The notes under the pieces were generated by a model. The model saw only the letters and a program-made list of their open reading frames with translations. It was not told the DNA's origin and did no database searches. DNA of 64,000 nt from a virus: IMG/VR virus record IMGVR_UViG_3300028840_006907, positions 320,001 through 384,000 of that record. One strand, 5' to 3'. Below are positions 18,824 to 58,233 of this stretch, in pieces. Numbering within the stretch: the stretch's first letter is position 1; each line of letters begins with the position of its first letter. The translations under genes were made by a program, and so were the position numbers.

Positions 18824-19252
18824 ATGAGCAATATGAAAATTGCAATAGCTTCTTATATGCGTTATACAGTTGTTTTAGCCAACTTGAAAGAGCATTTCAA
18901 AAGAGAACTCGATCTAGCTGGCCTATTTGATAAAGACTCCGATTATAATGGAATGATAGGTAACGCTGTTATGGACCTGTGTAAAGTCTTCTCTGATCAG
19001 GGCCATAGCGGGTTCTCCGCGAACTGGGTTCTGAAATTGTTCGATACTCTTGGTCACTATAAAACGTTGACTCCTATTACAGATAATCCGAAAGAGTGGA
19101 TGAAGGTTACAGATGGCCTCGGTAGAGATGAACCGGTCTGGCAGAGTAATCGAAATCCTTCCCTTTTTTCTAATAATGGTGGAAAGAGTTATTATGATGT
19201 AGACGATAAGAAGCGTAAGAAGATCCGCTCTAAAAAGTTTAAAAAGAAATAA
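18824..19252 (+). CDS. hypothetical protein
   Basis: Track start 18788 is TTG; in-frame ATG at 18824 has an AGAGGT RBS. Confidence 0.4.
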   Translation: MSNMKIAIASYMRYTVVLANLKEHFKRELDLAGLFDKDSDYNGMIGNAVMDLCKVFSDQGHSGFSANWVLKLFDTLGHYKTLTPITDNPKEWMKVTDGLGRDEPVWQSNRNPSLFSNNGGKSYYDVDDKKRKKIRSKKFKKK

Positions 19253-21408: not shown

Positions 21409-23859
21409 TTATATTTTATTATTTTTTCTAAGGAGAGCTATCTGACGTTTAATCCATCGAGGAGTTTCTTCAAGAGTTTCAGCCATTTGATTTCTTGTCA
21501 TCTTTCCACGATTATCTATTATGAATTGGAGCTTTTCTTCAGTCTTTCTATCTTTGGTACAACCAATAGGGTTTTTTGTAGATAATGTACCTTTTTTTTG
21601 TAAGAATTTTATTTGAGATTTAACCCATCGCTCTGTTTCATTGAGAGCTTTAGATAATTCTTTTTTAGTTTTATTTTTATAATTAGTGATTATATACTGC
21701 GTTTTTTCAGGGGTTCTTCTACATTTTGTTGAGAATTTAGAAATCTCTTTTAAATAGGTAAATTTCTCAGTGGGTTGTTTAATATTTATATCTTCAATAC
21801 ATTTTGAATTATATATTTCTTTTTCTCTTTTAGGATAAGGTTTAGTAACATAATTTTTTAATTTGTTAATTTTTTTCTTATCTCTTTTATTTTCACCTAT
21901 TAATAAGACATATTTATGTTTTCTTTCAGTAATAAATTTTTGAGCTTCAGATAATATATTTTTATTCCAATTATTCCATTGAACTTTAATTCCTTCTGGT
22001 ATGGTACTCATATTTTTAAAACCATTTTCTTTAAACCATTCCTTTTGAGAAATAATCCCTTGATTTTTACACCATTTTTTAAATGCTGATGTACGTTTTA
22101 GAGATTGAGCTGAAAAAGTCCTATTATTTTTAATGGAAGGATGTTTATATAAGTATGAACTTCCAAAGTTATTTCCTAGATAATCAAATCCACAAGCTTG
22201 GTAAATAGTCCCTATTTCAAGAGCTTTAGGATCAGCATAACCTATGAAAGCTCTTTTAGAAGTGTTATTAGCCATCCAATTACAAGCAAACCTTATAAGA
22301 CGGCTACCCAGGTTTTTCGGGGTCCATGAGGCAGTGGCACCTCTTTGAATTAAAGCTTCATATTTGGGAGTATCTTTACCTAGAATTTTGGAATATGCTG
22401 TGGGTTCATTTATAAATAATACTCCTGCGAGAATATTATTGTATCTGGCTGTGAAGCACCATTTTGGTATTACTCCAATTGTTCCTAACCATTCATATTT
22501 TTTTATAAATTGGACCATTTCATTATTAAATTTTTCTTCAGATAATGTAAAAGAAGTAGCTTTTAAAGAAGAGTGATTGAAATCGATATTTTTTTTATCT
22601 TCATCAATCCATTGAAGTTTCTTTTTATATTGGTGGCATATAAAAGTGGTCTTGTTTTTACTGTTAATTTTATTTTTTATTAAATCAATGATAATACCTT
22701 TTCGGATAGCTTCTTTTACATCATCAGACCAAAATCTAATCAAATTGGGTATATTTTTATTTTGGATTTCATCATTCTTAATATTTTCTTTTATTTTTAA
22801 TGCCCTTGGAGACGTATCATTTTCTCTTATTTCTTTACCATGCCAATAATTACCATCATATTGTACCCATAAGTTATAGCGAGGCATATAGAAATCAATT
22901 ACATGTTTAATAATTGGGTGCATAACTTGATGTTCTACAAAAGGATCAAATACAATAAGATAATTAAAAAAGTTATTTTCTTCATCTGAGGATGAGAAGG
23001 AATTATTTAGTTTAACTGTTTTATATGTTTTTTCTTTTATTTCAACATTCTGTTGGGGATTTTCAACGCCATATCTTTCAATATTAGTTTCAGTGATTTT
23101 TTTCTTAATCTCTGGAGATTGGAATACATTGTCAACCCCGTATCTTGATTGTACTGTTACTTTAACTTTTCTTTTTACTTCTTTAGATTGAGAGGGGTAT
23201 TCTACTCCTCGTTTTTCAATATTAGATTGACGGGATTTTTCTTTCATTGAGTTTAGTTGAGTAGAATATTCTACGCCATAACGTTTTTTAATAGTTTCGT
23301 TATTATGTTTAACTATATCTTCATTTATTTTATCTCGATTCCTTCTTAATCCTAGTTTAATAGCTCTTTCTCGGATGGCTTTCCAGGTCCTGTTTTCAAA
23401 GTAGAGCATAATAAATTCCATAGAATTCTTTTCATATACTTCTTTTAAAAGATCATCTTCTTTGGGTGACCAGAAGTCTTCCCTAGCAGGAGCGCTTTTA
23501 CCACCATCAATCATTTCTTGTTTAATTATTTCAGGATTTCTTTGAAGGTTTAATTTTTGAGCATTACTTCGGATGCTTTGCCATGATCGATTCTTGAATT
23601 TAGAAAGGATAAATTCTTTTGAATTATTTTCATATATATTTTTAAGAATATTTATCTCTTCGGTTGTCCAGGAATCTTTTCTTGGTCCTCTTTTTTTACG
23701 GTCTTCATTTATAAGGTCAGGATTACGGTGAAGATTTAGCTTACGTGCTTTTCTACAGATGGTTGTCCAAGATTTATTTAATTTGGAGATAATAAATTCT
23801 TTTGAATTATTTTTATATATTTCTTTTAATAAATTTTCTTCTTCTATTTTCCAACGCAT
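21409..23859 (-). CDS. multidomain hypothetical protein: N-terminal triplicated helical repeats, YGV(E/D)N repeats, possible Vsr/PD-(D/E)xK-like nuclease core
   Basis: Start set at second Met (MRWKIEE) with AAGAGG RBS; track start is 23916. Three ~50-aa repeats (SWTTEEINILKNIYENNSKEFI...); three RYGVxNxxQ repeats; VIDFYMPRYNLWVQYDGNYWHG resembles a Vsr/DUF559-type core. Only minus-strand gene in the plus-strand block. Confidence 0.5.
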   Translation of the reverse strand: MRWKIEEENLLKEIYKNNSKEFIISKLNKSWTTICRKARKLNLHRNPDLINEDRKKRGPRKDSWTTEEINILKNIYENNSKEFILSKFKNRSWQSIRSNAQKLNLQRNPEIIKQEMIDGGKSAPAREDFWSPKEDDLLKEVYEKNSMEFIMLYFENRTWKAIRERAIKLGLRRNRDKINEDIVKHNNETIKKRYGVEYSTQLNSMKEKSRQSNIEKRGVEYPSQSKEVKRKVKVTVQSRYGVDNVFQSPEIKKKITETNIERYGVENPQQNVEIKEKTYKTVKLNNSFSSSDEENNFFNYLIVFDPFVEHQVMHPIIKHVIDFYMPRYNLWVQYDGNYWHGKEIRENDTSPRALKIKENIKNDEIQNKNIPNLIRFWSDDVKEAIRKGIIIDLIKNKINSKNKTTFICHQYKKKLQWIDEDKKNIDFNHSSLKATSFTLSEEKFNNEMVQFIKKYEWLGTIGVIPKWCFTARYNNILAGVLFINEPTAYSKILGKDTPKYEALIQRGATASWTPKNLGSRLIRFACNWMANNTSKRAFIGYADPKALEIGTIYQACGFDYLGNNFGSSYLYKHPSIKNNRTFSAQSLKRTSAFKKWCKNQGIISQKEWFKENGFKNMSTIPEGIKVQWNNWNKNILSEAQKFITERKHKYVLLIGENKRDKKKINKLKNYVTKPYPKREKEIYNSKCIEDINIKQPTEKFTYLKEISKFSTKCRRTPEKTQYIITNYKNKTKKELSKALNETERWVKSQIKFLQKKGTLSTKNPIGCTKDRKTEEKLQFIIDNRGKMTRNQMAETLEETPRWIKRQIALLRKNNKI

Positions 23860-23962
23860 ATGAGTACCTCTTTTTAGTATATTACTTATTATAACAGGTA
23901 TTAGAGTTATTGTCAATATTTCATTTAATAAATATGGAATTCATTAATTTATAGGGAAAAAG

Positions 23963-25930: not shown

Positions 25931-26848
25931 ATGAAAAAAGTATTTATTATAATAGTATTGTTTTGTGCTTATGGATTTTCAGAAATATCTGTGTCAGATA
26001 TTGTTAAATCATTTGTGGATAATCCAAAGACTTTCAGATCTAGATTGTTGAAATATGAAGTTATTCCAGACCATGTTGATTTACCAATAGAATTTGTCGA
26101 TGATGAAGATGAAAGTTTATGGAAAACTAAGAAAAAGGTTAATTATATAATAGATTATTCAAAGATGTCGAAATGTGCTGATAAATTTAGAGATCTTTTT
26201 GCATATGAAGGATTGACTGAATATCAGTATATGGATCAGTCAAACCTTTTGGTATTTAATCATCCTAATGGTGGCCGTGAAGTATCCGCACAGATTGTCA
26301 GGGATTTGATTAATACTAGAACAGAGGCAGAATTAAAAAATATAGGATTGACTTTAGGTGAAAAGCTCTTTGCCATTTTTAAGAATAAAATAGAATTTCA
26401 ATGTACGGAAATAGAGTATACAAGGGGTCATACGAATTTAAACCAAATAAGTAAATACTCTATTCGATATAGGCGTATTTTTAATGATGGTATTGTCTTA
26501 CAGAATATTTCCTATATAATGTTAACTCTGGAAGGACTTGGTGATTTGATTGAAGTCGAGATTAAATGGCCTAAATTTAAAAAATGTGAAAATATAAAGA
26601 ATGGCATTTTAATTAAGGACGCTTTAATATTAGCTAAACAAGAGTATAATGAAATCGCTTCTCGAAAAGTTGATGAATTCTTAAATATTGAAGCTATCGA
26701 TAGACTTTCTATAACTGGATCTTGTTTTGGATGGACTCATGAGATCATTGATGGTGTTAATTTATTAAAACCTAGTTATGGGTTTGTGGGAATAGCTGAA
26801 ACAAAGAATGGTAAAAAAGAACATCATTATATAAATATCGATAAATGA
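25931..26848 (+). CDS. secreted hypothetical protein
   Basis: 305 aa; signal-peptide-like MKKVFIIIVLFCAYGFSEIS; GGGAGA RBS. Confidence 0.45.
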   Translation: MKKVFIIIVLFCAYGFSEISVSDIVKSFVDNPKTFRSRLLKYEVIPDHVDLPIEFVDDEDESLWKTKKKVNYIIDYSKMSKCADKFRDLFAYEGLTEYQYMDQSNLLVFNHPNGGREVSAQIVRDLINTRTEAELKNIGLTLGEKLFAIFKNKIEFQCTEIEYTRGHTNLNQISKYSIRYRRIFNDGIVLQNISYIMLTLEGLGDLIEVEIKWPKFKKCENIKNGILIKDALILAKQEYNEIASRKVDEFLNIEAIDRLSITGSCFGWTHEIIDGVNLLKPSYGFVGIAETKNGKKEHHYINIDK

Positions 26849-27978: not shown

Positions 27979-30900
27979 ATGGCTCAAGTAGAAAGAAAAT
28001 GGATCCAGGACCAAGCAATTTCCAATGAAAAAGTAGATCCCACTGATATTTATACCATTACAGGTTTAAGAGTTGATGAAACCAATGCCATTGGGAGAGT
28101 AGGAATAGGTTTATCTAGCCCTTTGGATGCTCTTCATATTCAACGAACTGATTCTTCTTCTGGAATGATGCTGGATCTTAGTGATGGTACAAATGGTAAA
28201 CTTTATAAGATATATTCAGGAGCTAATGGTTTACTGAATTTTACTGATGCTACAGATGGGGGCATATTCACCTATGGTGAATCAGGTTCGATAGGTCGAG
28301 TTGGTATCAATACCGCATCTATCCAAGATCACCTTCATGTAAGTTCCCCTTTAACAGATGCTGCGTTAAGACTTGATTTAGATGATGGACTCAATGGTCG
28401 AGCTTATCGTCTTGTCTCAGATACAGATGGAGCTTTTAGGATAATTGATGTTGATGCGGGTAATGTAAATAGACTTCAGATTGCTAATACAGGAACTTTA
28501 ACTGTCTCAGGTGATGCAACTTTTGATAGTAATTTTCAAATTAATGGTACTGTTACAGTTATTAATACTGAAATTGTCATTGCAGATCAATTAGAAATAA
28601 ATCAAACTGACAATCAGGCAGCATTGATAGTAAGTCAAGATACAGGTGGTGCTACAGCCACTGTAATGAGAATTGAAAATGCTGGCACAGGCCATGCTTT
28701 AACCGTAGATTCTGGTAATGTAGGTATTGGTACTTTAACTCCGGCTGCTCCTCTTCATGTTCAAGGTGATATAATTACTGCCAATGGGTATAATATCGGA
28801 GACACCACTCATAGAATTGGTACTCTTTGGATGGCTTCTACTGTAGATTATTTGACTGACCTTAATTTTAGTTCAGGTGGAACAAATGTTACTTTTGCAA
28901 CCGGTGGAAATGTCGGGATAGGTTCTGGTACTCCTACCCAGGCCCTGGATGTGGTTGGAACTATAGAAAATACAGGTGATATCATAACAACTGGTTCTTA
29001 TCCTTCCGGTTTAATAAGAGGAGCTTATTTAACGATAACTACTGGAAATTCGACTTTCCAAGGAAGAGTGGGAATTGGTGTTACAAGTCCGTCTTATCCT
29101 CTTCATGTTGGTGGAGACATTTATTCCAATACAGGTAATATTGTAGCCACTGCTGGAACTGTGACAGGTGGATCTGGTTTAATAGCTACTACAGGTGGTG
29201 TTATAGCCTCTGCTGGAAATATAACAGCGACCTTGGGTGATCTCATCGCTTCTGCGGGTTCTGTAACTGCTAATACAAATGTAACTGCTACGAATGGAAA
29301 TATAGTTGCTTCTAATGGAAATATTTCTGCTACGAATGGTACAGTAACAGGAGGCACCGGTTTAATAGCTACCACAGGGGGTGTGACCGCTACGAATGGA
29401 AATATAGTTGCTTCTAATGGAAATATTTCTGCTACGAATGGTACAGTAACAGGAGGCACCGGTTTAATAGCTACCACAGGGGGTGTGACCGCTTTAGCTG
29501 GTAATATCTCTGCTTCGGCTGGTTCTGTAACTGCTAATACTAATATAACAGCCACGAATGGTAATATTGTTGCTTCTAATGGAAATATTTCTGCTACAAA
29601 TGGTACGGTAACAGGAGGCACCGGTTTAATAGCGACTACAGGTGGTGTAACCGCTACGGCTGGAAATATCACTGCTTCAAATGGTAGTTTTGTCGCTCCA
29701 AATGGAATTGTAAGTGTAGGTTTTGGCGTTATAGCAGCAGGGGGTGATATATTTGCCCAAACGGGTAAAGTAGGAATTTCAACCAGTTCTATTGCAGGAG
29801 GTTATGTATTACATGTTCAAGGAAACGCTTATTGTTCAGGTCAAGTAGATACAAATACTTTGGATGTAGGTAGTGGCAGTTTTACTGTAAGTGCAATTGG
29901 TGCAACAAATATCGGACCAGGCTGGTTAACTTTCGGTCAACATATGTCTGGTGGAGGACAGATTGGATCTGCTTCTACCGTAAATATTGTTTCAACCAGT
30001 GGTGCAACTATGTCAGGAGGTTCAGGCGCTGTCTCAATTACTACTAATAACAGTGGTACGCCAAGTGCGATTAATGTGACCTCTGGAAATAACACCGGAT
30101 CAGGAGTTGGTGGAGCACTCAATCTGAATGCAGGTGATTCGGGAGGAGCTGGTACAGGTGGTGCAGTAACTATTACTGGAGGAACGGCTTCAGGTGGTGG
30201 ATCTACAGGAGGAGACATTTTGCTGCTTCCTGGAAGTGCTGTCTCAAATGGGCGCGTTGAGGTAGGCACAGGTGCCTCTTCGAAAAATTTATGGGTTTCA
30301 GGTAGTGTAACTATAGAAGGAGCTAATTCTGCTTTTGCTCTTTCGATTAATAATACGAATTATGTAGGAGCTTATTGTGCAATAGCAGGAGCATCAACGG
30401 TAGCTGGCTGGTTTGAAAATAGTGGTTCAGATTCAACATCTATGTTTGTGCAACAATTAAATACTGGTAAAGGGCTTTTCGCTACTGGATTAGGATTAAA
30501 TTCTTTTGCAGGATTTTTCCAAAGTACGGGCTATACAACTCTTAGGTCAGAAGTGAGTGGTACTGGAGGTGGTGATTATGCTGTACATGCAATATGTACA
30601 AATGCTGGATCGAGTGCCACTTCAGCAGCAGTTTTTGCTCAAAATTGGGGAGGTGGAAAAGCTATTCAGGCAACCGCAGGAACTGGAACTACTATTCAAG
30701 GGTCAAACACTAATGGTACTGCTATTTATGGGTCTCAAGCAGGAACCTCTGGTAGAGCAGGACGTTTTAGGTGTAATGCTGGATCTTATGCATACAATGC
30801 TGTTGAGGTAGAAGTGACTTCAGGTACAGGAGCTTCAAAAGGGATCTTAGTTAATTATACCGGTTCTGGTAATGCTATAGAAGTAAACGGTGGTAGTGGC

Positions 30901-31665
30901 TATGGTATTGAAGCATACCAAAGTGCAGGAACAGTTTATCATGGGACTAATTCAGGAACTACAGGTAGAGCTGCTTTATTCGAAACTTCTAATACCAGTT
31001 TTAATGGTACTATAGTTGAAATAAGTAGTAATACAACATCACTGAATAATAATTGTTTAGTTTGCAATCATTCAGGTAGTGGTACAGGTCTTACTGTTAA
31101 CTCCAATGCAGCGGGTGCTAGTTTTGGTATTAACAGCTTTATGCCGGGTGTCTCTGGAACTGGAAGAGCTATTAATGGCTACTGTGTTTCAGCATCAGGA
31201 TTTGCCGGTTATTTTACTGGGAATGTACATATTGCGGGTACTCTTTCTAAAACTGCGGGTGGTTTTAAAATTGATCATCCAATTGAACCTGAGACAAAGA
31301 ATTTAGTTCATAGTTTTGTTGAAAGCCCTGAGATGAGGAATGTCTATTATGGACGGGCTGTGACTCATGATGGGACAGCATCTATAGGTCTTCCGGATTG
31401 GTGGGTTACATTAAATGGGTCTAATAAGGAAGAGTATAATTATAGTTTAACTACTATTGGTAAATACAGCAGATTATTTATTAGTAAAGAAATAGAGAAC
31501 AATCAATTTGAAGTCTCTTCATTGGATGGAGACTGTACTTTTTCCTGGACTATCTCAGCCATTCGCCATGATACTTATGCTGAGAGCAACAGAATACAAG
31601 TAGAAAAGAACAAAACACAAGAAGAAATAGATGATTATAAAAAAGAGCATGGCATTTCTGTCTAA
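27979..31665 (+). CDS. glycine/threonine-rich fibre-like structural protein (tail-fibre-like), paralog 1
   Basis: 1228 aa; AAAGGAG RBS; long G/T/S/N-rich beta-rich repeats; N-terminal ~300 aa closely match 31696-35172. Confidence 0.6.
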   Translation: MAQVERKWIQDQAISNEKVDPTDIYTITGLRVDETNAIGRVGIGLSSPLDALHIQRTDSSSGMMLDLSDGTNGKLYKIYSGANGLLNFTDATDGGIFTYGESGSIGRVGINTASIQDHLHVSSPLTDAALRLDLDDGLNGRAYRLVSDTDGAFRIIDVDAGNVNRLQIANTGTLTVSGDATFDSNFQINGTVTVINTEIVIADQLEINQTDNQAALIVSQDTGGATATVMRIENAGTGHALTVDSGNVGIGTLTPAAPLHVQGDIITANGYNIGDTTHRIGTLWMASTVDYLTDLNFSSGGTNVTFATGGNVGIGSGTPTQALDVVGTIENTGDIITTGSYPSGLIRGAYLTITTGNSTFQGRVGIGVTSPSYPLHVGGDIYSNTGNIVATAGTVTGGSGLIATTGGVIASAGNITATLGDLIASAGSVTANTNVTATNGNIVASNGNISATNGTVTGGTGLIATTGGVTATNGNIVASNGNISATNGTVTGGTGLIATTGGVTALAGNISASAGSVTANTNITATNGNIVASNGNISATNGTVTGGTGLIATTGGVTATAGNITASNGSFVAPNGIVSVGFGVIAAGGDIFAQTGKVGISTSSIAGGYVLHVQGNAYCSGQVDTNTLDVGSGSFTVSAIGATNIGPGWLTFGQHMSGGGQIGSASTVNIVSTSGATMSGGSGAVSITTNNSGTPSAINVTSGNNTGSGVGGALNLNAGDSGGAGTGGAVTITGGTASGGGSTGGDILLLPGSAVSNGRVEVGTGASSKNLWVSGSVTIEGANSAFALSINNTNYVGAYCAIAGASTVAGWFENSGSDSTSMFVQQLNTGKGLFATGLGLNSFAGFFQSTGYTTLRSEVSGTGGGDYAVHAICTNAGSSATSAAVFAQNWGGGKAIQATAGTGTTIQGSNTNGTAIYGSQAGTSGRAGRFRCNAGSYAYNAVEVEVTSGTGASKGILVNYTGSGNAIEVNGGSGYGIEAYQSAGTVYHGTNSGTTGRAALFETSNTSFNGTIVEISSNTTSLNNNCLVCNHSGSGTGLTVNSNAAGASFGINSFMPGVSGTGRAINGYCVSASGFAGYFTGNVHIAGTLSKTAGGFKIDHPIEPETKNLVHSFVESPEMRNVYYGRAVTHDGTASIGLPDWWVTLNGSNKEEYNYSLTTIGKYSRLFISKEIENNQFEVSSLDGDCTFSWTISAIRHDTYAESNRIQVEKNKTQEEIDDYKKEHGISV
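29287..29490 (+). repeat. perfect 102-bp tandem duplication inside fibre CDS, plus a third imperfect copy to ~29650
   Basis: Unit GCTACGAATGGAAATATAGTTGC...GGGGGTGTGACC repeated identically at 29287 and 29389; in-frame, 34 aa (ATNGNIVASNGNISATNGTVTGGTGLIATTGGVT). Confidence 0.8.
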
Positions 31666-31695: not shown

Positions 31696-34600
31696 ATGTC
31701 ACAAGTGTTGAGAAAATGGATAGCTGATCAAGCCGTTAATAATGATAAAATAGATCCTACCGATACCTATACAATTACAGGATTGAGAGTCGATGAGACG
31801 AATGCCGTAGGAAGAATAGCAATGGGATTAAGCAGTCCATTAGATGCTATTCATATTAGGAGGACTGATACTTCTGCTGGTATAATAATGGATCTTGATG
31901 ATGGAGGTTCAGGACGATCTTATCAAATAACTTCAGATCAAAGTGGCTTTTTAAATGTAAGAGATAGAGATCTCGATGTTGATCGATTGACTTTATATTC
32001 TGTTCCTTCAGTAGGGCGCTTAGGAGTAAATAGTTATTCTCCTCAAGACACTATTCATGCACGATCAACTGTACTTGCTTCAGCTTTACGATTAGATACC
32101 GATGATGGATTTGCAGGAAGATCTTATCGTGTCGTTTCTGATACCGATGGTGCTTTTAAGATTATCGATGTTGATGCAGGTAATGTGAATAGATTTCAAA
32201 TTGCTAATACAGGTACTTTGACAGTTTCAGGTGATGCAACTTTCGATAGTAATTTTCAGATTAACGGTACTGTTACTGTAATAAATACAGAAATAGTAGT
32301 AGCTGATCAGCTCGAAATTAATCAAACAGATGATCAGGCTGCGTTAATAGTAAGTCAAGATAATGCAGGTGCCACGGCTACTGTAATGAGAATCGAAAAT
32401 GCAGGTTCGGGTCATGCTTTAACCGTAGATTCTGGTAATGTAGGTATTGGTACTTTAACTCCGGCTGCTCCTCTTCATGTTCAAGGAGATATAATTACTG
32501 CTAATGGGTATAATATCGGAGACACCACTCATCGAATTGGTACTCTCTGGATGGCTTCCACTGTAGATTATCAAACAAATTTAAATTTTTATTCTGGTGG
32601 AAATAATGTTACCTTTGCCACGGGTGGTAATGTTGGTATAGGTTCGACTATTCCTACTCAGGCCCTGGATGTGGTTGGAAATATTTTAGGTAGTGCAAAT
32701 ATACAGGGTGCAACATTAACTATAAATACAGGACCTTCCCAGTTTACTGGAAATGTTGGTATCGGGATTTCTCCTTCATATCCTCTTCATGTAAGTGGTG
32801 CTATTGTAGGAACTACGACAGTAACGGGTGGTACAGGTATTATTGCTTCAACTGGTAATATTACAGCTTCTACAGGAAATATAATAGCAACCTTGGGAGA
32901 TATGACAGCGGTTGCAGGGGATATAGCTGCTCCATTAGGTACAATTACGGCATCGAGTTTAAATATAACCTCAGGGCCAACTTCACTTGCTGGCCCTTTT
33001 TCAGTTACGACCCCAGCTACAACTGATACTTATATGGAAATTAGTAGAGCTGGTTTTCCTGCATTCAAAGTCCAGACTTATTATGTTGCTTCACCTACTA
33101 CAAGCAGAATTGTGGAAATGGGTGCTACTGACGGTGGACAGACACATATTACTTATGGTAGTGGCGGTCCAACACGTCGAGCCATTTCGATTTTAAGTGC
33201 TGGTGCTACTTTAGGTTATGTAGGTATAGGTACTCAAACCCCCGCACAAAGACTTCAAGTTCAAGGTAATATTCAAGTAGAAGGTGATTTTTTAGGAAAG
33301 CCTACTGCAAGTGCTTCGAATATAGGTAGTTCTACTCGTCGGATTGGTACTATTTATATGGATTCGACAGTTAACACAGGTTCTACGGGTTTAACAATAG
33401 CGCCTAGTGGGAGCCCGATGTTATATGTCACTCCAAGTGGAGTAGGTATAGGAACAGATTTTCCTGTCAATTTATTAGATGTGAGAAGTTCTGGTGCTGT
33501 GGCTGCTCAGCTTCAGGCTGGTTCTGGTGGAAACAATGCATTTTTTAGAGTGAGAGCAAATGGTATTGGTGGAGATGCATCTATAGTAGTGGATTCAGGG
33601 GATGCTGCTAATGCTTCTACAGTAGATTTTTATTTTGCTGGTAATCCTGGTGGTTCGATAGAATATAAGGGTTGGAATATGAATATAAACAACTCTATAG
33701 GTTATACGAGCGTGAATATTGGGAGTCAACCAGTATTAAAAGTGGACTCACCAGGAGTCGATGTTAGTACATCAGGTAATTTAACAATGAATCTTCGAGG
33801 TGGTCCAACTAATAGCATAAATTTAGACTTTGGTAATACCTTTTTAGCTTATGCAGGTATTCATCAACCTCATTTTCTTGATACTACGGTATATAATAAT
33901 ATTGGCAAGATCATTTTAACGCCCAGTACTAACATGCTTTATGCAACAAGTACTGGTGTTGGTATATTTCAAGCGGATGTCCCTAGCGCTTTTCTACATG
34001 TAAAGAGTACTGTAGGGGCTGCTGATGCTAAGATTGAATCGACAGTAGGAAATGCTCAATTAGATCTTACTCCTCAATTTAATGCTAATGCTATTCTAAA
34101 TATGACTGCATTTTCCGGTATTCAGCAGACAGGTGCTACAGACATGACCATGTTTAATAATATCGGAAGAATTGTTTTAACTCCAAGTTCTAATATGCTT
34201 TATGCTACAAGTACAGGAGTTGGAATTTTTCAAGCTGATGTTCCTACCGCTTTTTTACATGTTAAGAGTACAGTTGGACTAGCTGATGCGAAAATTGAGT
34301 CCACAGTAGGAAATGCTAAATTAACATTTACTCCGCAATTTAGTTCTAATGCAATTATCGAATTTGGAGCATTTGCAGGTATTCAACAAACTGGTTTTAC
34401 TGATACTACTGTGTTTAATAATGCAGGTCAGATTGTTTTGTCTCCTAGTTTAGGAGTGTTGCGTGCTTCAAGTGCAGGTGTAGGTCTTACTTATGGTGAT
34501 ACTTTTACACCAGGTTATTTGTTGCATATGTATAGAAGTTCTGGATCTACTGAAGCAAAAATTGAATCAGATGATAATAATGCCCGATTAAGGCTTGATT

Positions 34601-35172
34601 GTGGTAATAATCAGGAGAGTGAAATATTTTTTCAAGAACAGGGTAATAATGAAGCGTCTATTCAATATAATGCCACTAATCAAAGATTATACATTCGTGG
34701 TTCAGATGGCCTCAGATTTGGGACATATCCATCAACCAACACAATGAATTTATATAGTAGTGGTCTTATCCATTATTCAGCATACGAAGCTCATCCTTAT
34801 ACAGGTGGTGGAGATGGTTATCATTTCGATCTATGTGTTGATAGTGCAGGAGATATGACTACAAATAGAGTTCAGAATATTGAAGTTTATGGGACTCTTG
34901 GTTCAGGAACTAGTGGTTTAATAGATTTAAGTGGTCGCAGTAGTCAGATTAACAATAATACTTTTATTGCTTTTGACTTATCTGTTAAACATCTTGGTTT
35001 TGGAGATGTCTGGTATCCACCAGGTTATGATTCGTCTGGTACTATCAAACATTATGATGCACGTTTTCAAATTCCAAGTGGCCCTGCTGTTATTCTTATT
35101 AATCGTGGAGCTGATATGGATGGTGCTAATCCTTATAGGTTACTCGTTTGGTTTCGTACTGTAAGTCATTAA
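31696..35172 (+). CDS. fibre-like structural protein, paralog 2
   Basis: 1158 aa; AAAGGAG RBS; N-terminus MSQVLRKWIADQAVNNDKIDPTDTYTITGLRVDETNAVGR matches paralog 1; divergent C-terminal two-thirds. Confidence 0.6.
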   Translation: MSQVLRKWIADQAVNNDKIDPTDTYTITGLRVDETNAVGRIAMGLSSPLDAIHIRRTDTSAGIIMDLDDGGSGRSYQITSDQSGFLNVRDRDLDVDRLTLYSVPSVGRLGVNSYSPQDTIHARSTVLASALRLDTDDGFAGRSYRVVSDTDGAFKIIDVDAGNVNRFQIANTGTLTVSGDATFDSNFQINGTVTVINTEIVVADQLEINQTDDQAALIVSQDNAGATATVMRIENAGSGHALTVDSGNVGIGTLTPAAPLHVQGDIITANGYNIGDTTHRIGTLWMASTVDYQTNLNFYSGGNNVTFATGGNVGIGSTIPTQALDVVGNILGSANIQGATLTINTGPSQFTGNVGIGISPSYPLHVSGAIVGTTTVTGGTGIIASTGNITASTGNIIATLGDMTAVAGDIAAPLGTITASSLNITSGPTSLAGPFSVTTPATTDTYMEISRAGFPAFKVQTYYVASPTTSRIVEMGATDGGQTHITYGSGGPTRRAISILSAGATLGYVGIGTQTPAQRLQVQGNIQVEGDFLGKPTASASNIGSSTRRIGTIYMDSTVNTGSTGLTIAPSGSPMLYVTPSGVGIGTDFPVNLLDVRSSGAVAAQLQAGSGGNNAFFRVRANGIGGDASIVVDSGDAANASTVDFYFAGNPGGSIEYKGWNMNINNSIGYTSVNIGSQPVLKVDSPGVDVSTSGNLTMNLRGGPTNSINLDFGNTFLAYAGIHQPHFLDTTVYNNIGKIILTPSTNMLYATSTGVGIFQADVPSAFLHVKSTVGAADAKIESTVGNAQLDLTPQFNANAILNMTAFSGIQQTGATDMTMFNNIGRIVLTPSSNMLYATSTGVGIFQADVPTAFLHVKSTVGLADAKIESTVGNAKLTFTPQFSSNAIIEFGAFAGIQQTGFTDTTVFNNAGQIVLSPSLGVLRASSAGVGLTYGDTFTPGYLLHMYRSSGSTEAKIESDDNNARLRLDCGNNQESEIFFQEQGNNEASIQYNATNQRLYIRGSDGLRFGTYPSTNTMNLYSSGLIHYSAYEAHPYTGGGDGYHFDLCVDSAGDMTTNRVQNIEVYGTLGSGTSGLIDLSGRSSQINNNTFIAFDLSVKHLGFGDVWYPPGYDSSGTIKHYDARFQIPSGPAVILINRGADMDGANPYRLLVWFRTVSH
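33895..34416 (+). repeat. imperfect in-frame tandem repeat (2 x ~261 bp) within fibre paralog 2
   Basis: Two ~87-aa units starting NNIGKIILTPSTNMLYATSTGVGIFQADVP and NNIGRIVLTPSSNMLYATSTGVGIFQADVP, roughly 80% nt identity. Confidence 0.5.
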
Positions 35173-36008: not shown

Positions 36009-38234
36009 ATGTCTTACATGTTTCGATTGACTGTTGATAGTAGCAAAATAATAGGAACTGATAAAACAGATTTTCCTGTTTTATTTAATGAAAATTGTTC
36101 GAATATACCATCTTCTTTTTGGTCTAATATCACTGATGTAACAGATGGATTAGATGTTCGTTTTTATGATAGTACATCAAAATCAATTGAATATTCAAGA
36201 GAAGTTGTATCAGTTGATGCTACTGGTGAAACTATTGAATCATGGGTACAAATACCTTCTTTAAGTGTTAGTGCAGATACTGATCTTTATTGTGAAGTTG
36301 GAGGTGGTGATCGAACAAATGATACTGATATATGGACTGATTTAGGGGCACTTGGAATTTATCATATGGAAAACACTGCTAGTTCTGTTGATAATGGAAA
36401 AGATGCAACAAATAGTGATGCCACTTCCATAACTGGAAGAATAGGAAGATGTTACGATTTTGACGGTACAAGTAATTATATGGTAATGGATAATTATACC
36501 TTTTTAACTTCTAATCCTTACTATGTTTCTGCCTGGATTAATATGGATAACACTAAAGTAACTGATCCAAGTTGGGAGGATCAATTCGCTACCATATTTA
36601 ATAGATTAGAGAAGTGTAATGAATCTGTATCAGGAAGAGGATCATGCTCATTTGATTTTGGTGTTGATAGAGATGCTAAAGTAGGCTTTTTTGTTGGAGA
36701 TAATTTAACTAATGTATGTTCTAATGCAGGTTATCATCAAGATAGGTATACCACAGATAGCACTATTAATATGAATACATGGTATCATGTTGGTGTCTGG
36801 ATTGAAGATATTTCACAAACAACACCTAACCGTATTGTGAAATTTTATATAGATGGTCAATTGGTCTCTTCTACAGAGAATATTAGTGCCGCTGTTGACT
36901 ATTCGAATACTCATAGACCAGGTGAACAAACTCGAATTGGTAGTGGATATAGAATAGGGGGAGCACACTATCAAAATTTTAATGGTCGAATAGATGAATT
37001 AAGAATATTTAATGGTTCAGATTTTGATTCTAGTTGGATTGAGACAAGTTATAATACTCAAAGTGATCCAGCTTCATTTCTTTCTGGTAGTACCCTTCCA
37101 TTTCAATTTAATGTGAATGTCATATCAGATTATGTCCCTGGTTCAGATAAAACGAATTTTCCAGTAATGTTTACTCAAGATTGTAGCAATGTACCCTCCG
37201 AGTTATGGGATCATGTTTCGGATACGACAAATGGATTAGATATTAGATTTTATAGTGATTCTGGAAAGAGTGTTGAATATGATCGTGAAATTGTTCTTTA
37301 TGATCGGACTGGTCAAAAAGTAGAAGCTTATATAAAAGTACCTACATTAAATGCTTCTTCAAATACAACTTTTGTATGTGAAATAGGGGATGCTACAAAA
37401 GCTAATGATCAAATTTGGGCCGATTCTAGCGCTAGAGGTATATACCATCTTCAAAAGAGTTTAATGGATTATTCTCCAAGAGGACTGGATGGTACAAATA
37501 ATGGTTCTTTAGACTCAACAGGAAAAATAAATGACGCTTATTCATTTAATGATAGCCATGTCCAAATTTATGAGAGTACTGCTTATAATGATACTGTAGC
37601 AATAAGTGCATGGATAAATCTTAATTCTTATCCGCCAAATAATTCTTTAACAGGTTCTCCGAACTATGGCCGTGCAAGTATTTACAATACGGCAGTTATC
37701 TGTTCAACCACTTATAGAGGTTGGATTCCCATGAGTTTTAATATTACACCAACTGGTGAACTTGATTTTTGGGTTAGGACAAGTGTTAGTTGTGGTGGTG
37801 GAGCAACTACATGGGGCTATCGAACGGATAGTACACATATCAGTCTTTATAATTGGCATCATGTCATGGCTGTTATAAATAATTATACAGATGGTGCAAC
37901 AAGATCTCTGACATTTTATGTAGATGGTCAATCGGTAGCTGCTACAAAAGTTTATACTGCAGAATTTGCCCCGGTATACGCTGGTGGTATTCAAACAAGA
38001 ATTGGGTCCCAGTATAAAACTTCAGGTGTTAATGAGTGGCGAATAGATGGTATTATTGATGAATTGCGGATTCATGATGGTTGGGAGCCTCCTGATACTG
38101 ATTGGATAGAGACTGATTATAATAATCAAAATGATCCGAATACGTTTATTATTTGCGGGGATGTTCCAACTCCTCCTTCTACTTCTGTACCTGTAATGCG
38201 AAGAAGACAAAAAGTGAACAGTAGTGGTTTTTAA
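36009..38234 (+). CDS. surface/adhesin-like protein with two tandem DUF2341-like + LamG-like modules
   Basis: 741 aa; module 1 TDKTDFPVLF...GLDVRFYDSTSKSIEYSREV and GRIDELRIFNG; module 2 SDKTNFPVMF...GLDIRFYSDSGKSVEYDREI and GIIDELRIHDG. Confidence 0.6.
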   Translation: MSYMFRLTVDSSKIIGTDKTDFPVLFNENCSNIPSSFWSNITDVTDGLDVRFYDSTSKSIEYSREVVSVDATGETIESWVQIPSLSVSADTDLYCEVGGGDRTNDTDIWTDLGALGIYHMENTASSVDNGKDATNSDATSITGRIGRCYDFDGTSNYMVMDNYTFLTSNPYYVSAWINMDNTKVTDPSWEDQFATIFNRLEKCNESVSGRGSCSFDFGVDRDAKVGFFVGDNLTNVCSNAGYHQDRYTTDSTINMNTWYHVGVWIEDISQTTPNRIVKFYIDGQLVSSTENISAAVDYSNTHRPGEQTRIGSGYRIGGAHYQNFNGRIDELRIFNGSDFDSSWIETSYNTQSDPASFLSGSTLPFQFNVNVISDYVPGSDKTNFPVMFTQDCSNVPSELWDHVSDTTNGLDIRFYSDSGKSVEYDREIVLYDRTGQKVEAYIKVPTLNASSNTTFVCEIGDATKANDQIWADSSARGIYHLQKSLMDYSPRGLDGTNNGSLDSTGKINDAYSFNDSHVQIYESTAYNDTVAISAWINLNSYPPNNSLTGSPNYGRASIYNTAVICSTTYRGWIPMSFNITPTGELDFWVRTSVSCGGGATTWGYRTDSTHISLYNWHHVMAVINNYTDGATRSLTFYVDGQSVAATKVYTAEFAPVYAGGIQTRIGSQYKTSGVNEWRIDGIIDELRIHDGWEPPDTDWIETDYNNQNDPNTFIICGDVPTPPSTSVPVMRRRQKVNSSGF

Positions 38235-38400: not shown

Positions 38401-41400
38401 ATGCCTGAAAGAGTCCTAAGAAAATTTGGTGTGGCAGCATCAGTTGATTTTACCCTATTCGAAACAGATGGAATTAACTTTAAAACTGATGCAACGCATG
38501 CCTCCGGTGACACAAAAATAAGAAAAGACACGAGTGCTGAAGTAAATACAACAAATGGATTTACAGATCAAACTACATCATATGCAATAGCATTTACCTC
38601 TGCTGAACTGTCTGCTAAGAGAATATTTGTTGGAATTGTTGATCAAGGTACAAAAACTTGGCTCGATGATTATTTAATGATTGAGACTTACGGACATCCT
38701 CAAGCAATGCACCCCTTTGATCTTGGTGCTGATTTAACTGATTATAATGAGACCTGGAAATTTAAACAAATCGATATCCAGAATGATTCAGGATCTGCAT
38801 TTAGAGCACATTCAACGGGTAGTAGTGGCCATGGTATCGATGCCTCTGGATATGATTTAGGTCACGGTATATATGCCAAAGGTGGTAATACGGATGGTGT
38901 TGGAATTTTTGCTAAAGGTGGTGAAACCGGGCATGGCTTTTATGGAGAAGGAGGTGCTGATTATGGAGATGGTATTCATGGTGAGGCTGTTGGTATCGGT
39001 ACAGGATCTCGTAAGGGTATAGTAGGTATCGGAGAAGGTGGAAACGCTGGGATTTATGCTGAAGGTGGTAGTACTGGTCATGGGTTTAGTTGTGAGGGTG
39101 GTACCGGTGGTGCTGGTATATCTTGTCTTGGAGGTACAAATGGCCATGGTTTTCTGACTTCAGGTACTGGTACTGGAGAAGGTATTTATGCTGTTGGAGA
39201 TATAGGGATTTTTGCTCAAGGTAATGGAAATCCAGGTCATGGTATGAGCCTATTTGGAGCTTCTAATGGCCATGGATTACAGATCTCTGGATCTGGTTCT
39301 AATTTTAATGGAATCAATGTAGTATCTGCAGTGGGTGTAGGTATTGAAGTAAATGCTGGTACAAATCAAAATGCTATTGAGATTTATGGTAATGGTACCG
39401 GAAACGGTGTTAATATAGTTGGTGGTGGTACATCAGGTTCAGCTATGAATCTTACTGCAACGTCTGGTTATGCTATAGATGCTTCAGGAGGTGGAACTTT
39501 TGCTGCTGTTCATCTACAAGGTGGTACAGGAAATCCTGGTTTAAAAGTTCTCGGAGATGGTACAGGTGAAGGTCTCTATGCTGAAGGAGGAGCAACAGCT
39601 AATGGCATTATTGCTAAAGCGGGTTCTACCTCTGGAACAGGTCTTGTTTGTCAATCCCCTACTGCTGGAGATGGTGTAGCAATGTATGGAAAGAGTACTG
39701 GCAAAGGTCTTAGAATTACTGCTGATCAAGAAGCAGTGGCAATTTCTGCCGGTACCGGTATTGGAATTAATGTTATAGCTGGTACTCAAGGTATCAGTTT
39801 AACGGGTCTTGCAAATGAAGGATTAAAGATATTAGGTGCAACACATGGAATTAGTACAGCATCATTTGGAACTGGACATGGCATAGATGCTTCTGGTGGT
39901 GGTGCTAATGCAGCGGTTCTTCTAACAGGTGGAACAGGTCAGGCTGGTTTGAAATTGGTAGGTACGGGCACAGTTGGGCTGGATACGGCTGAAATCGGAA
40001 CGCCTCCAGCTATCTTTGATGGTACTGCAAGTCCAAGCATATATGCGATGCTTACGGCAATGTCTGATGCAAGTGGTGGTTCTGATTTCACTGCTAGTAT
40101 CGATAGTTTAGTTGCTATTTCTAGTCAGGTTGGAGGAATGTCCACAGATGTAAATGTAGTCTCTATTGATGGTCAGGCTACAAGTGGTAACAATGCAACT
40201 CTTAATTTGAAACAATTAAATATCGTTAATAATTCAGGATCAGCCATTGTCGCTCACTCAACTGGTTCTGATGGTCATGGTTTGGATGCTTCAGGTAATA
40301 ACAATGGTAGCGGAATATATGCCTATGGTGGTAATAATAGTAGCGGAAGCGGAATATATGCTAATGGTGGCTTACAGGGAACCGGTTTCCATATAATTTC
40401 TTCAGGAGATAATGCCTTACATATTGAAACTAGCGGATCAGGTTCTAATGGAATCTATGCTAAAGGATTTGGTTCTGGGCATGGCGTGAACTTTGTTGGA
40501 GGAGCTTCATCTGGGTCAATCGGTCTCAGAGCTTCAGGTGAGACAGCGGGTATTTACGCAAGAGGAGAAAATTCTACGAGTGGTGACGGTATAAAAGCTG
40601 AATCTGTAGAACATGGGCATGGTATAAATGCCCTTGGTGGTGAAGGTGGTGCTCCTCCAAGCGGTGACGGTATTCATGCTGAAGCCCGTCATGGAGACCA
40701 TTATGGTATTTACGCGGGTGGTTTTGGCTCTGGAAGTGGCATGTATAGTAAAGGTGGTTTATGGGGTCATGGAGTTGAGTTTAGAGGTGGGGATAATTCT
40801 GGTGCAGGTTTACTTCTTGCAGTAGATGGAACCAATTCTAATGGCTTGAGTATAACGGGTTCTGATAATAGTTCAGGTGTCTATATTGAAGGTGGTACAT
40901 CAGGACATGGAGTTGAAATAATAGGAGGATCAACATCTGGAAGTGGTATCTATACACGTGCTCTAAATAACGGAATGGGTATCTATGCAATAGGTGGTAA
41001 TTCAGCAGGTGATGGTATAAATGCTCAGTCCCCGGTAGCAGGTAACGGAATTTCAGCAACTGGTTCTCTTATTACGGGTAAAGGAATAGTCAGTACGGGT
41101 GGTATAGCAATGCAACTAGTAGGATTGACTGGAAATGCGCTTGATATGACAACAACTACTGGACATGGTATTCAAATAGATGCTCATGGGTCTGGGAAGA
41201 GTGGTATGTATATACAATCTACTTCATCCTATGGTATGACCGTTGTCGGAACCACTGGAGTAAGATTCCAAGGATTATCAGGTCCAGGTATTGATGTTAA
41301 TGCTATAGGTGGTAATGGTTTAAATATCATAAGTACTGACAATGATGGAGTACATATTGAAGCTGGTGGAAGTAATCCTGGTTTCTACAGTCAAGGATCG

Positions 41401-42318
41401 GGATCACAAGCAGGTATGGAAATTCGTGGTGGTAGTTCTGATGGAAGAGGTTTGTTGGTCCAAGGTGGTGGAAATAGTGAAGGTGCTCGGATTTTAGCTG
41501 GTGGCTCTTTCGATGCCGGTCTCCATATTATGGGCGGTGGGCATGGTTTACAAATTGAAGCTCAAGCCGGTAATTATAATGGTGTTAGAATTCAAGGAAA
41601 TGGGACTGCAAGTGGCCTATATGTTGCTGCTCAATTTGCTGGTTCTGGTAGTGGTGTGGAAATCAGAGGAGCTAGCAATACTGGTGGCCATGGTGTCAAT
41701 ATAACAGGTTTTGGAGGACAAGGGTTAATTGCTACAGGTGATTTGGGTGGTATGAATATAACATGTAGTGGATCAACAGGTGACGGTTTTTATGCTGAGG
41801 GTGGAGATCATGGCCACGGAATCCATGCTGTCGGTGGTGCTGGTGCTGCTCCTCCTCCAAGTGGCCACGGTATTCTGGCTGAAGCCGTCCACGGTGATTA
41901 TAATGGTATTTGTGCCATTGGTCATGATTCCAGTGCTGGTATCGCTGCTATTGGTGGATCTACTGGTCATGGTATTGAGGCAATCGGTGGAGATACAACA
42001 GGTGATGGTATTAATGCTTATGCTCAGACAGGTGACGGCGCTGGAATGCGCTTAAGAGGAGTTGGTACAGGCCATGATCTTGATGCTACTGAAGTCCTTG
42101 GTGGTGGAGGAGGAGGTACTCTAAATGCCTTAACTCTGGATACTGTAGTTGATGGCACCACATTAGAATATGCCTTTATGTTAATGATGGCACGAGTAAA
42201 TGGTAAATATCTTGTTAATGATCCAACGGGAGGAGATATAAGATTCTTCAGACGTGATAATACGACAGAATTAACTCGGGTTCATGTGGATACCGCAGGT
42301 AGAACAAGAACATTCTAA
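38401..42318 (+). CDS. giant glycine-rich repeat protein with recurring G-H-G motifs, predicted beta-solenoid fibre
   Basis: 1305 aa; AAGGAG RBS; dozens of ~12-14-aa degenerate repeats (TGHGFYGEGG, SGHGIDASG, GHGVEFRGG); larger duplicated segments around 38.95, 40.64 and 41.82 kb. Confidence 0.55.
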   Translation: MPERVLRKFGVAASVDFTLFETDGINFKTDATHASGDTKIRKDTSAEVNTTNGFTDQTTSYAIAFTSAELSAKRIFVGIVDQGTKTWLDDYLMIETYGHPQAMHPFDLGADLTDYNETWKFKQIDIQNDSGSAFRAHSTGSSGHGIDASGYDLGHGIYAKGGNTDGVGIFAKGGETGHGFYGEGGADYGDGIHGEAVGIGTGSRKGIVGIGEGGNAGIYAEGGSTGHGFSCEGGTGGAGISCLGGTNGHGFLTSGTGTGEGIYAVGDIGIFAQGNGNPGHGMSLFGASNGHGLQISGSGSNFNGINVVSAVGVGIEVNAGTNQNAIEIYGNGTGNGVNIVGGGTSGSAMNLTATSGYAIDASGGGTFAAVHLQGGTGNPGLKVLGDGTGEGLYAEGGATANGIIAKAGSTSGTGLVCQSPTAGDGVAMYGKSTGKGLRITADQEAVAISAGTGIGINVIAGTQGISLTGLANEGLKILGATHGISTASFGTGHGIDASGGGANAAVLLTGGTGQAGLKLVGTGTVGLDTAEIGTPPAIFDGTASPSIYAMLTAMSDASGGSDFTASIDSLVAISSQVGGMSTDVNVVSIDGQATSGNNATLNLKQLNIVNNSGSAIVAHSTGSDGHGLDASGNNNGSGIYAYGGNNSSGSGIYANGGLQGTGFHIISSGDNALHIETSGSGSNGIYAKGFGSGHGVNFVGGASSGSIGLRASGETAGIYARGENSTSGDGIKAESVEHGHGINALGGEGGAPPSGDGIHAEARHGDHYGIYAGGFGSGSGMYSKGGLWGHGVEFRGGDNSGAGLLLAVDGTNSNGLSITGSDNSSGVYIEGGTSGHGVEIIGGSTSGSGIYTRALNNGMGIYAIGGNSAGDGINAQSPVAGNGISATGSLITGKGIVSTGGIAMQLVGLTGNALDMTTTTGHGIQIDAHGSGKSGMYIQSTSSYGMTVVGTTGVRFQGLSGPGIDVNAIGGNGLNIISTDNDGVHIEAGGSNPGFYSQGSGSQAGMEIRGGSSDGRGLLVQGGGNSEGARILAGGSFDAGLHIMGGGHGLQIEAQAGNYNGVRIQGNGTASGLYVAAQFAGSGSGVEIRGASNTGGHGVNITGFGGQGLIATGDLGGMNITCSGSTGDGFYAEGGDHGHGIHAVGGAGAAPPPSGHGILAEAVHGDYNGICAIGHDSSAGIAAIGGSTGHGIEAIGGDTTGDGINAYAQTGDGAGMRLRGVGTGHDLDATEVLGGGGGGTLNALTLDTVVDGTTLEYAFMLMMARVNGKYLVNDPTGGDIRFFRRDNTTELTRVHVDTAGRTRTF

Positions 42319-57216: not shown

Positions 57217-58233
57217 ATGAGTTGTGGCGTGGATATAGGAACATGTTTCCTTGTAAGTGCTAGAAATGATGATAATAATCAAATTCAAATAAAGTCTATT
57301 CGGGATGCTTTTCTTGACATGGAGAACAACCCCCAAGTCAAAAACATGATGAAAATGTCAGGTGCAAATTTTATTGAATCTGACGACATTCTTTACATAA
57401 TTGGTGATTCCTCAGTGGTAGTAGCAAACATATTCCAGAAAGAAGCTCGTAGACCATTGAGTCGGGGTGTTATTTCTCCTGGTGAACTTGAAGCTGAGAA
57501 AATTCTGTTGGTTTTGATAAAGGATATATTGGGGAATTGTAAAGTGCAGGATGAAACTTGTTATTATTCGGTTCCTGCCGAGCCCATAGATCATGAAGCT
57601 GATGTGATCTATCACCAAGCTATGTTTAGTAAACTTATTGGTTCATTAGGTTACAAGCCAGTTGCTTTAAATGAGGCAGCAGCAATCATTTATAGCAATT
57701 GTGGAAAGGAAAAATTTTCGGCGATATCTATTTCTTTTGGTGCCGGTTTAACAAATGTTTGTCTTATGTATCAAACGATTATTGGTATGGCTTTTAGTGT
57801 AAATAAAGCTGGAGATAATATTGATGACGGTGCTGCTCAGGCTCTGGGAACTACTTCCAGTAGAATACAGTCAATAAAAGAAAAGGGTATAAATCTTCTT
57901 GATCCTAATGAAGGTGATCCGAAGACTTTCCGGGAACGTGAAGCTATTATCATTTATTATAAAAGTTTGGTTTTATATGTACTTGATAAAATCAAAGAGG
58001 AATTTTTGAAACGTCAAGGTACGATTGAATTACCTAATGCTATTCCGATTGTGCTTTCAGGTGGAACTAGTTTGCCGAAGAATTTTAAAGAGTTTTTTGA
58101 AGCCGGTTTTAATGAAGTAAAGGATAAATTCCCAATTCCGATTTCAGAGATTAGAATGGCAGAACAACCATTAAATGCAGTAGCACAGGGTCTATTAATT
58201 GCCGCTATGAACCATGATGAAGGGTCAAAATAA
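57217..58233 (+). CDS. actin-fold ATPase (MreB/ParM/Alp-like, ASKHA superfamily)
   Basis: 338 aa; AAGGAGG RBS; N-terminal GVDIGT phosphate-1-like motif, VLSGGTS and C-terminal NAVAQGLLIAAM. Confidence 0.55.
   Translation: MSCGVDIGTCFLVSARNDDNNQIQIKSIRDAFLDMENNPQVKNMMKMSGANFIESDDILYIIGDSSVVVANIFQKEARRPLSRGVISPGELEAEKILLVLIKDILGNCKVQDETCYYSVPAEPIDHEADVIYHQAMFSKLIGSLGYKPVALNEAAAIIYSNCGKEKFSAISISFGAGLTNVCLMYQTIIGMAFSVNKAGDNIDDGAAQALGTTSSRIQSIKEKGINLLDPNEGDPKTFREREAIIIYYKSLVLYVLDKIKEEFLKRQGTIELPNAIPIVLSGGTSLPKNFKEFFEAGFNEVKDKFPIPISEIRMAEQPLNAVAQGLLIAAMNHDEGSK

Follow-up and report, generated by a model that had tools for sequence, protein, structure and literature searches.

A tail-fibre-like gene of an uncultivated jumbo phage contains two adjacent, in-frame units of 102 base pairs (bp) that are identical at every base, and contigs otherwise identical over this locus have been assembled with either one or two of these units, which suggests that the shaft of the encoded fibre probably varies by 34 amino acids (aa) in nature. 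The gene (27979-31665, plus strand; 1228 aa, delineated from the list of open reading frames, ORFs, and the translation) lies in a stretch of 64,000 nucleotides (nt) that corresponds to positions 320,001 to 384,000 of the IMG/VR virus record IMGVR_UViG_3300028840_006907 and is referred to below as the window. The product is presumably a trimeric receptor-binding protein of a myovirus with a genome of about 469 kb, an assignment that is based on sequence features and on the genomic context discussed below.

The perfect duplication and the older repeats

Unit 1 (29287-29388, plus strand; aa 437-470) and unit 2 (29389-29490, plus strand; aa 471-504) match at 102 of 102 bases in a direct comparison of the window letters, start in frame 0 of the ORF and encode the same peptide, ATNGNIVASNGNISATNGTVTGGTGLIATTGGVT. 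Identity at a lag of 102 extends over 29287-29391, so that the periodic tract spans 29287-29493, that is, two copies plus 3 nt; Tandem Repeats Finder describes it with a period of 102, 2.1 copies and a score of 414, and it is the sole perfect long tandem repeat of the window. An exact match of 102 nt cannot have arisen by chance. The two adjacent, base-identical, in-frame units that an initial annotation of this DNA had described are thus borne out, and the diverged third copy that it placed downstream is real as well, although this copy is separated from unit 2 by a spacer of 60 nt rather than being adjacent and ends 2 nt beyond 29650, the end given there.

Relative to the unit, this third, older copy (29551-29652, plus strand; aa 525-558) has 9 substitutions among its 102 bases, all of them synonymous and in third codon positions, so that the protein contains the same 34-aa unit three times. 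The spacer between unit 2 and the third copy is 29491-29550 (plus strand; ALAGNISASAGSVTANTNIT), and the 60-nt segment that precedes unit 1 (29227-29286, plus strand; ATLGDLIASAGSVTANTNVT) is the first half of an older repeat of 162 nt (54 aa), which comprises the first and third copies, each together with its preceding 60 nt. The two 162-nt blocks, 29227-29388 and 29491-29652, differ at 26 of 162 nt, with 14 synonymous and 6 non-synonymous codons. Farther upstream, an oldest, diverged and partial copy of the unit core (29131-29211, plus strand; aa 385-411, NTGNIVATAGTVTGGSGLIATTGGVIA) is recognizable in the translation, in a Tandem Repeats Finder row with a period of 81 nt and in repeat family D1. 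Judging from these comparisons, the array is the product of nested duplications, with the older copies evolving under purifying selection.

Under the scenario we propose, the shaft would have grown by nested in-frame duplication that involved the old 81-nt core copy, then the 162-nt block and lastly the 102-bp block. The latest event probably occurred through replication slippage or illegitimate recombination between imperfect 9-nt repeats. The left junction, GTAACTGCT (29281-29289, plus strand), pairs with GTGACCGCT at 29383-29391 and 29485-29493; the copies at 29281-29289 and 29383-29391 form an imperfect direct repeat with 7 of 9 positions matching, including an exact GCT, at a spacing of 102 nt. 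The 102-bp duplication would be so young that its copies differ by no substitution, and it would still be polymorphic, otherwise identical genomes having a single copy (giving a 1194-aa fibre) in some cases and two or more (1228-aa fibre) in others. A pair of perfect 102-bp direct repeats is a classic target of RecA-independent deletion and expansion, as seen in assays of tandem-repeat instability in Escherichia coli. Once two perfect copies were in place, slippage or unequal recombination could add or remove units and thereby change the shaft length in steps of 34 aa, while leaving the anchor at the N-terminus and the tip domain at the C-terminus unaffected.

Two other origins were considered and rejected. 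Unequal crossing-over of unit 1 with the third copy predicts a change of 162 nt instead of 102 nt. A diversity-generating retroelement does not fit a locus in which the adjacent copies are identical and the differences of the third copy are synonymous, involve all four bases and are not adenine-specific; no reverse transcriptase was detected among roughly 30 larger ORFs of the window, the smaller ORFs being outside the scan.

An antisense ORF of 183 aa (29121-29672, minus strand) sits wholly inside the repeat region; rather than being a gene, it most likely reflects the repetitive codon pattern there, which is poor in stops.

One-copy and two-copy alleles

Comparison of copy number among related genomes, the check proposed in the initial annotation, gave a positive result. 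The cluster of proteins at 90% identity that includes the window protein has exactly two members, of 1228 aa (three JGI/NCBI contigs, the longest of 469,617 bp, with the exact window protein) and of 1194 aa (two ENA contigs of 469,260 and 469,021 bp). The shorter protein (P0001; 1194 = 1228 - 34) matches the window protein at every residue but contains a single 34-aa unit where the latter has two. At the nucleotide level, the one-copy locus L002 (ENA ERZ27256798, contig k141_1708087, 469,021 bp, assembled with MEGAHIT) lacks 102 nt relative to the two-copy locus L001 (JGI metagenome 3300017963, contig of 388,651 bp) and is otherwise the same at every base across 23.6 kb. The window is distinguished from both of these loci by a single substitution over 23.7 kb, A in the window and T in L001 and L002 at 26533, which is non-synonymous (E201D in a 305-aa ORF, 25931-26848). 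Because the window differs from L001 at this position, it constitutes a further independent two-copy record; its form of the 305-aa protein is absent from the assembly collection. The earlier proposal of a very recent duplication, with length changing in steps of 34 aa, is thus supported by the one-copy protein and locus, at the level of assemblies and with copy number correlated with the assembly pipeline.

This correlation is an argument for the first alternative, namely that the duplication is fixed at two or more copies and the 1194-aa protein results from collapse during MEGAHIT assembly. Both ENA/MEGAHIT contigs (2 of 2) carry one copy, and all three JGI/NCBI contigs (3 of 3), as well as the window, carry two; furthermore, the T at 26533 shared by L001 and L002 hints that these two loci may derive from the same reads. 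The allele evidence is at the level of assemblies, not reads, and an exact 36-nt probe from the left flank retrieved no further contigs of the population among metagenome or viral contigs. These observations all weigh against a natural polymorphism, as does part of the k-mer enumeration, in which one-, two- and three-copy sequences were compared at several k: at k up to 99, every k-mer of the one-copy sequence is also present in the two-copy genome, so that collapse at lower k is conceivable. At k = 119, 127 and 141, however, the one-copy path requires 13, 21 and 35 flank-to-flank k-mers, respectively, that are absent from the two-copy genome. MEGAHIT, as we understand its operation, passes just unitigs and read-derived k-mers from one k step to the next. 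With this behaviour and a final k of 141, the one-copy allele is most simply explained by real one-copy reads, and the two separate ENA contigs are concordant. Family members without perfect DNA repeats agree in length across the JGI, ENA and Logan assemblies, an observation that fits both genuine instability of perfect repeats and difficulty in assembling them. Taken together, these data make collapse unlikely.

The longer allele is anchored by the unit-to-unit junction ACAGGGGGTGTGACCGCTACGAATGGAAATA, the 31-mer of which is unique in the window, so that a contig with two copies can only have been built from real reads of molecules that carry two or more. A three-copy genome contains every two-copy k-mer at k = 127 or 141, and hence two is only a lower bound. 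The true copy number might accordingly exceed two, with short-read assembly having compressed a longer perfect array and the window under-reporting a more unstable repeat, given that at these k the two-copy contig is the minimal path for any number of copies from two upwards. Such a longer array appears very unlikely, however, because no allele of 1262 aa or longer was found in a collection of 15 billion proteins, where the cluster consists of the 1194-aa and 1228-aa forms only, and because the contigs pass through the locus unbroken, whereas a full cycle in the assembly graph often breaks contigs.

In view of the above, it is likely that the one-copy and two-copy alleles are both real and that the polymorphism is natural. 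Slippage may be ongoing and the population may be heterogeneous at this locus; against such continuing instability, only the states of one and two copies are observed, and a single segregating event explains them as well. Outside this cluster, the other protein clusters of the family yielded no length variants save truncated genes (P0021 compared with P0073 is an N-terminal truncation), a scan of viral contigs with a protein pattern found no relative, and megablast against phages found nothing.

The fibre-like protein and its genomic context

The label of fibre gene, already attached to this ORF in the initial annotation, is supported by capping-loop motifs, a C-terminus resembling that of a P-SSM2 protein, modular relatives, a paralogous gene and a contractile-tailed genome. 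The conserved N-terminal region (aa 1-370; 27979-29088, plus strand), presumably the attachment or proximal part of the fibre, contains repeated [RN]VGIGxxxPxxxLHV capping-loop motifs; altogether, six motifs of the type [RNK]VGI[GNS]xxxPxxxLHV occur within aa 39-614, in the N-terminal 370 aa and in the region past the shaft. They agree with the consensus V-G-G/N-pi-X-X-P-X-X-X-L that marks the trimeric beta-helix MAT fibres of Bdellovibrio and related phage fibres (PMC10769870). With these fibres, which include Bd2133/Bd3182, T5 pb1 and the stalk of the K1F endosialidase (PMC10769870), the window protein and its family share the capping-loop motif, the modular architecture and the interchangeable C-terminal tips, some family members being S74-ended. 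In a phmmer search, the Bd2133 fibre is matched weakly (8ond; E = 0.0046), and the same fibre is the top, non-significant, match in a Foldseek search of the PDB. The similarity is, however, confined to aa 235-378, and none of the solved MAT structures has a counterpart of the heptad shaft or of the C-terminal domain.

Several results run counter to the fibre assignment. Neither the whole protein nor any of its four segments matches Pfam, PHROGs or NCBIfam; the AlphaFold2 monomer models are mostly of low confidence (mean predicted local distance difference test score, pLDDT, of 51 and 47.5); and Foldseek against the PDB gave no significant fold match for either model. The trimeric structure of the fibre and any effect on adsorption or host range are putative.

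The duplicated unit lies in a shaft of about 30 heptad-like units (aa 379-585; 29113-29733, plus strand), some 200 aa of the 1228-aa protein, which was read from the translation and follows the consensus G-x-[IVL]-x-A-[ST]-x with occasional 6-residue units; the 34-aa unit equals five of these (7+7+7+6+7 aa). AlphaFold2 predicts a strand of 3-4 residues about every 7 residues of the shaft, with pLDDT of 60-77, the remainder of that model being poor. A sequence search of the PDB with the shaft returned nothing significant, the best PDB fold match to the head of a trimeric autotransporter had an E value of 4.6, and the model of YadA-like heads (Hep_Hag, PF05658) produced no Pfam match to the shaft segment even at E<=5; PF05658 is present elsewhere in the sequence of some distant matches from the family search. 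Collagen-like repeats and a coiled coil were ruled out, the shaft having neither the G-X-Y nor the helical heptad pattern and being predicted to form strands. The shaft may be an intertwined triple beta-helix or a beta-roll formed by each chain. In beta-helices generally, a strand layer rises by 4.8 A. By this geometry, one additional unit would lengthen the shaft by about 1.2-2.4 nm.

Distal to the shaft, the protein ends in a domain (aa 1081-1228; 31219-31665, plus strand) that is the putative distal or receptor-binding tip and of which about 135 C-terminal aa are modelled confidently by AlphaFold2 (pLDDT 85-97) as a beta-sandwich. Foldseek against the predicted viral structures of BFVD recovered 19 matches of this domain at E<=1e-3, the best one being a 'phage tail fiber-like protein' of P-SSM2 (Q58M60; E = 3e-8), and in a tblastn search aa 1080-1198 are 31% identical to the very C-terminus of PSSM2_295 of P-SSM2, the designation of which as a 'tail fiber protein' comes from annotation and not from experiment. 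The domain, which carries the motif FKIDHPxxPxxKxLxHSFVESPEM, matches no Pfam or NCBIfam model, and a sequence search of the PDB gave nothing significant. A HMMER search retrieved 11,921 representatives of 50% clusters at E<=1e-3, in which the domain is nearly always C-terminal in proteins of 130-1800 aa; these sequence matches suggest a domain family that is very large and uncurated.

The next gene downstream (31696-35172, plus strand; 1158 aa) is a paralogous fibre gene. Its product has the same N-terminus, a much shorter shaft of about 70 aa and a different, unrelated distal part, with 68% identity in BLASTP over aa 1-450 and 85% identity at the DNA level over 565 nt; it contains a diverged tandem repeat of its own (33852-34422), of 261 nt, 2.2 copies and 75% matches. 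The product of the tail sheath gene (60157-62958; 933 aa) shows 35% identity over 96% of its length to annotated sheaths of jumbo phages (Tunturi_5, an uncultured 485-kb phage, Bacillus phage G), and on this comparison the genome, of about 469 kb, is that of a contractile-tailed, myovirus-type jumbo phage.

The two fibre genes belong to a 24-kb run of very large genes on the plus strand (27979-52126), mostly without family assignment, which also encodes Laminin_G_3 proteins (36009-38234 and 42383-44431), a Gly-rich repeat protein of 1305 aa (38401-42318) and a 2441-aa protein with a choice-of-anchor Q domain (44801-52126). A 338-aa protein (57217-58233, plus strand), encoded immediately before the tail sheath region, gives a full-length match to Pfam Volactin (PF25216; E = 1.2e-63) and a weak match to MreB, and is an actin-like protein of the jumbo phage. 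Downstream of the sheath gene, a 48-nt tandem repeat (63712-63903; 3.9 copies, 87% matches) encodes a charged unit of the EAKETPAEEKPEEKEV type in a frame that runs past the end of the window. In the left part of the window, an 834-aa protein (21409-23916) is encoded on the minus strand, opposite to its neighbours, and combines Mom-like DNA-modification, HNH/homing-endonuclease and D5-like regions, according to PHROG matches and to Pfam DUF7487 and Mom in the contig gene table. The same table assigns Pfam Tad3 (PF25185) to a 142-aa protein at about 18824-19252 (plus strand; L001 846-1274), the gene of which is conserved, together with its position, in L004, a related phage contig.

Evolution of the shaft and known precedents

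The N-terminal region is conserved in 15 relatives, in which about 350 N-terminal aa are common and the distal modules differ, some of these proteins ending in an S74 chaperone domain. The shaft module, the length of which was estimated in the relatives with a composition-based measure, is absent from some of the phage relatives and up to about 200 aa long in others, and it reaches about 350 aa in the protein P0020. Duplications within the shaft are found in several of these proteins, with units of 32 aa in 3.7 copies (P0009), 52 aa in 2.8 copies (P0003), 20 aa in 2.4 copies (P0005), and 26 and 84 aa (P0020). The peptides encoded by the copies in L004, a syntenic relative, reach 100% identity, but 21-24 of 96 nt distinguish its third copy from the other two; these differences amount to 16-17 synonymous as opposed to 2-5 non-synonymous codons. 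The recurrence of duplications together with the conservation of the peptides indicates that duplication followed by conservation is the normal mode of evolution of the shaft module, and the duplication in the window is the youngest such event.

The longest of these shafts belongs to a protein of 718 aa (P0020; L005 6001-8157, NCBI GCA_964561915.1, CAZLQR010000001.1) with perfect protein-level repeats and a heptad shaft of the same type. Its neighbours on a contig of 158 kb are a myosin-head protein, a DUF5764 protein and a Pox_A32-like ATPase, a context that is giant-virus-like and not that of a phage.

The closest precedent is the Enterococcus myovirus EfV12-phi1, which has variable numbers of in-frame 1.8-kb tandem duplications in a long tail-fibre gene; these arose during laboratory co-evolution with resistant hosts, and nanopore reads resolved 0-4 or more extra copies (PMC6365445). 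Change of fibre length by duplication is therefore already known in phages. As in the window, the duplications are in-frame and head-to-tail, precede the distal binding part within the fibre gene of a myovirus, consist of identical copies that vary in number between genomes and show no diversification within the copies. The unit, however, is 1.8 kb in EfV12-phi1 compared with 102 bp here, where the data come from environmental assemblies and comprise the states of one and two copies only.

It is possible, if somewhat improbable, that the polymorphism is real yet neutral, a transient product of slippage in a tolerant, low-complexity spacer with neither a role in host recognition nor any special instability. 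That just two states are seen, that the shaft module is dispensable in several relatives and that the step is small next to a fibre of about 1200 aa are all compatible with neutrality. However, purifying selection keeps the older copies identical as protein, both in the window and in L004, many relatives have independent duplications of their own in the shaft module, and the tail-fibre tandem duplications of EfV12-phi1 were selected during co-evolution (PMC6365445).

Outside the viruses, length variation at a locus of this kind is best compared with the Periscope Proteins of bacteria (SasG, Rib, Sgo_0707, CdrA), in which the length of a stalk varies via highly identical tandem repeats and the highest repeat identity accompanies the most length variation (PMC8201768). 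The phage locus resembles them in having near-identical DNA repeats in a stalk, in a repeat number that differs between near-identical genomes and in that such differences would alter the projection of a terminal binding domain. The repeats of Periscope Proteins, however, are whole globular domains of about 70-130 aa at the bacterial cell surface, often in many copies, whereas the viral unit, of 34 aa and present in two perfect copies, is part of an uninterrupted shaft of beta-strands. Thus, the locus has repeats of high identity (102/102) and a variable repeat number, the latter at the level of assemblies and correlated with the pipeline, and its unit is not a folded bacterial domain; by this analogy, the phage fibre locus can be regarded as an analogue, not a member, of the Periscope Proteins.

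A further parallel is offered by the fibre shaft of adenoviruses, a triple beta-spiral of 15-residue pseudo-repeats, the number of which sets the length of the fibre. It too belongs to a viral attachment fibre with short beta repeats, whole-repeat length differences between lineages, a constant anchor and a distal knob, but the fold and the repeat are different, and it is serotypes with diverged repeats that vary in length there, rather than identical genomes in which the copies match at every base.

The heptad shaft, which is found in jumbo-phage fibres, in the protein from the giant-virus-like contig and in bacterial adhesin-like proteins, has neither a solved structure nor a family model. 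A broader and rather doubtful proposition is that it represents an uncharacterised fibre module that is tuned in length by recurrent in-frame duplication, with the base-perfect copies acting as a contingency locus, a viral counterpart of the Periscope Proteins, at which one-copy, two-copy and possibly longer alleles would coexist in the population and match the reach of the fibre to changes in host surface layers.

The 102-bp duplication reveals no new mechanism, and the locus marks a place at which short-read assemblies of this phage group are untrustworthy with respect to copy number. If both alleles are real, they would represent natural variation of fibre length by gain and loss of tandem repeats in an uncultivated 469-kb phage, a type of change that is otherwise documented mainly in laboratory co-evolution, as in EfV12-phi1, and, by analogy, in bacterial surface stalks.

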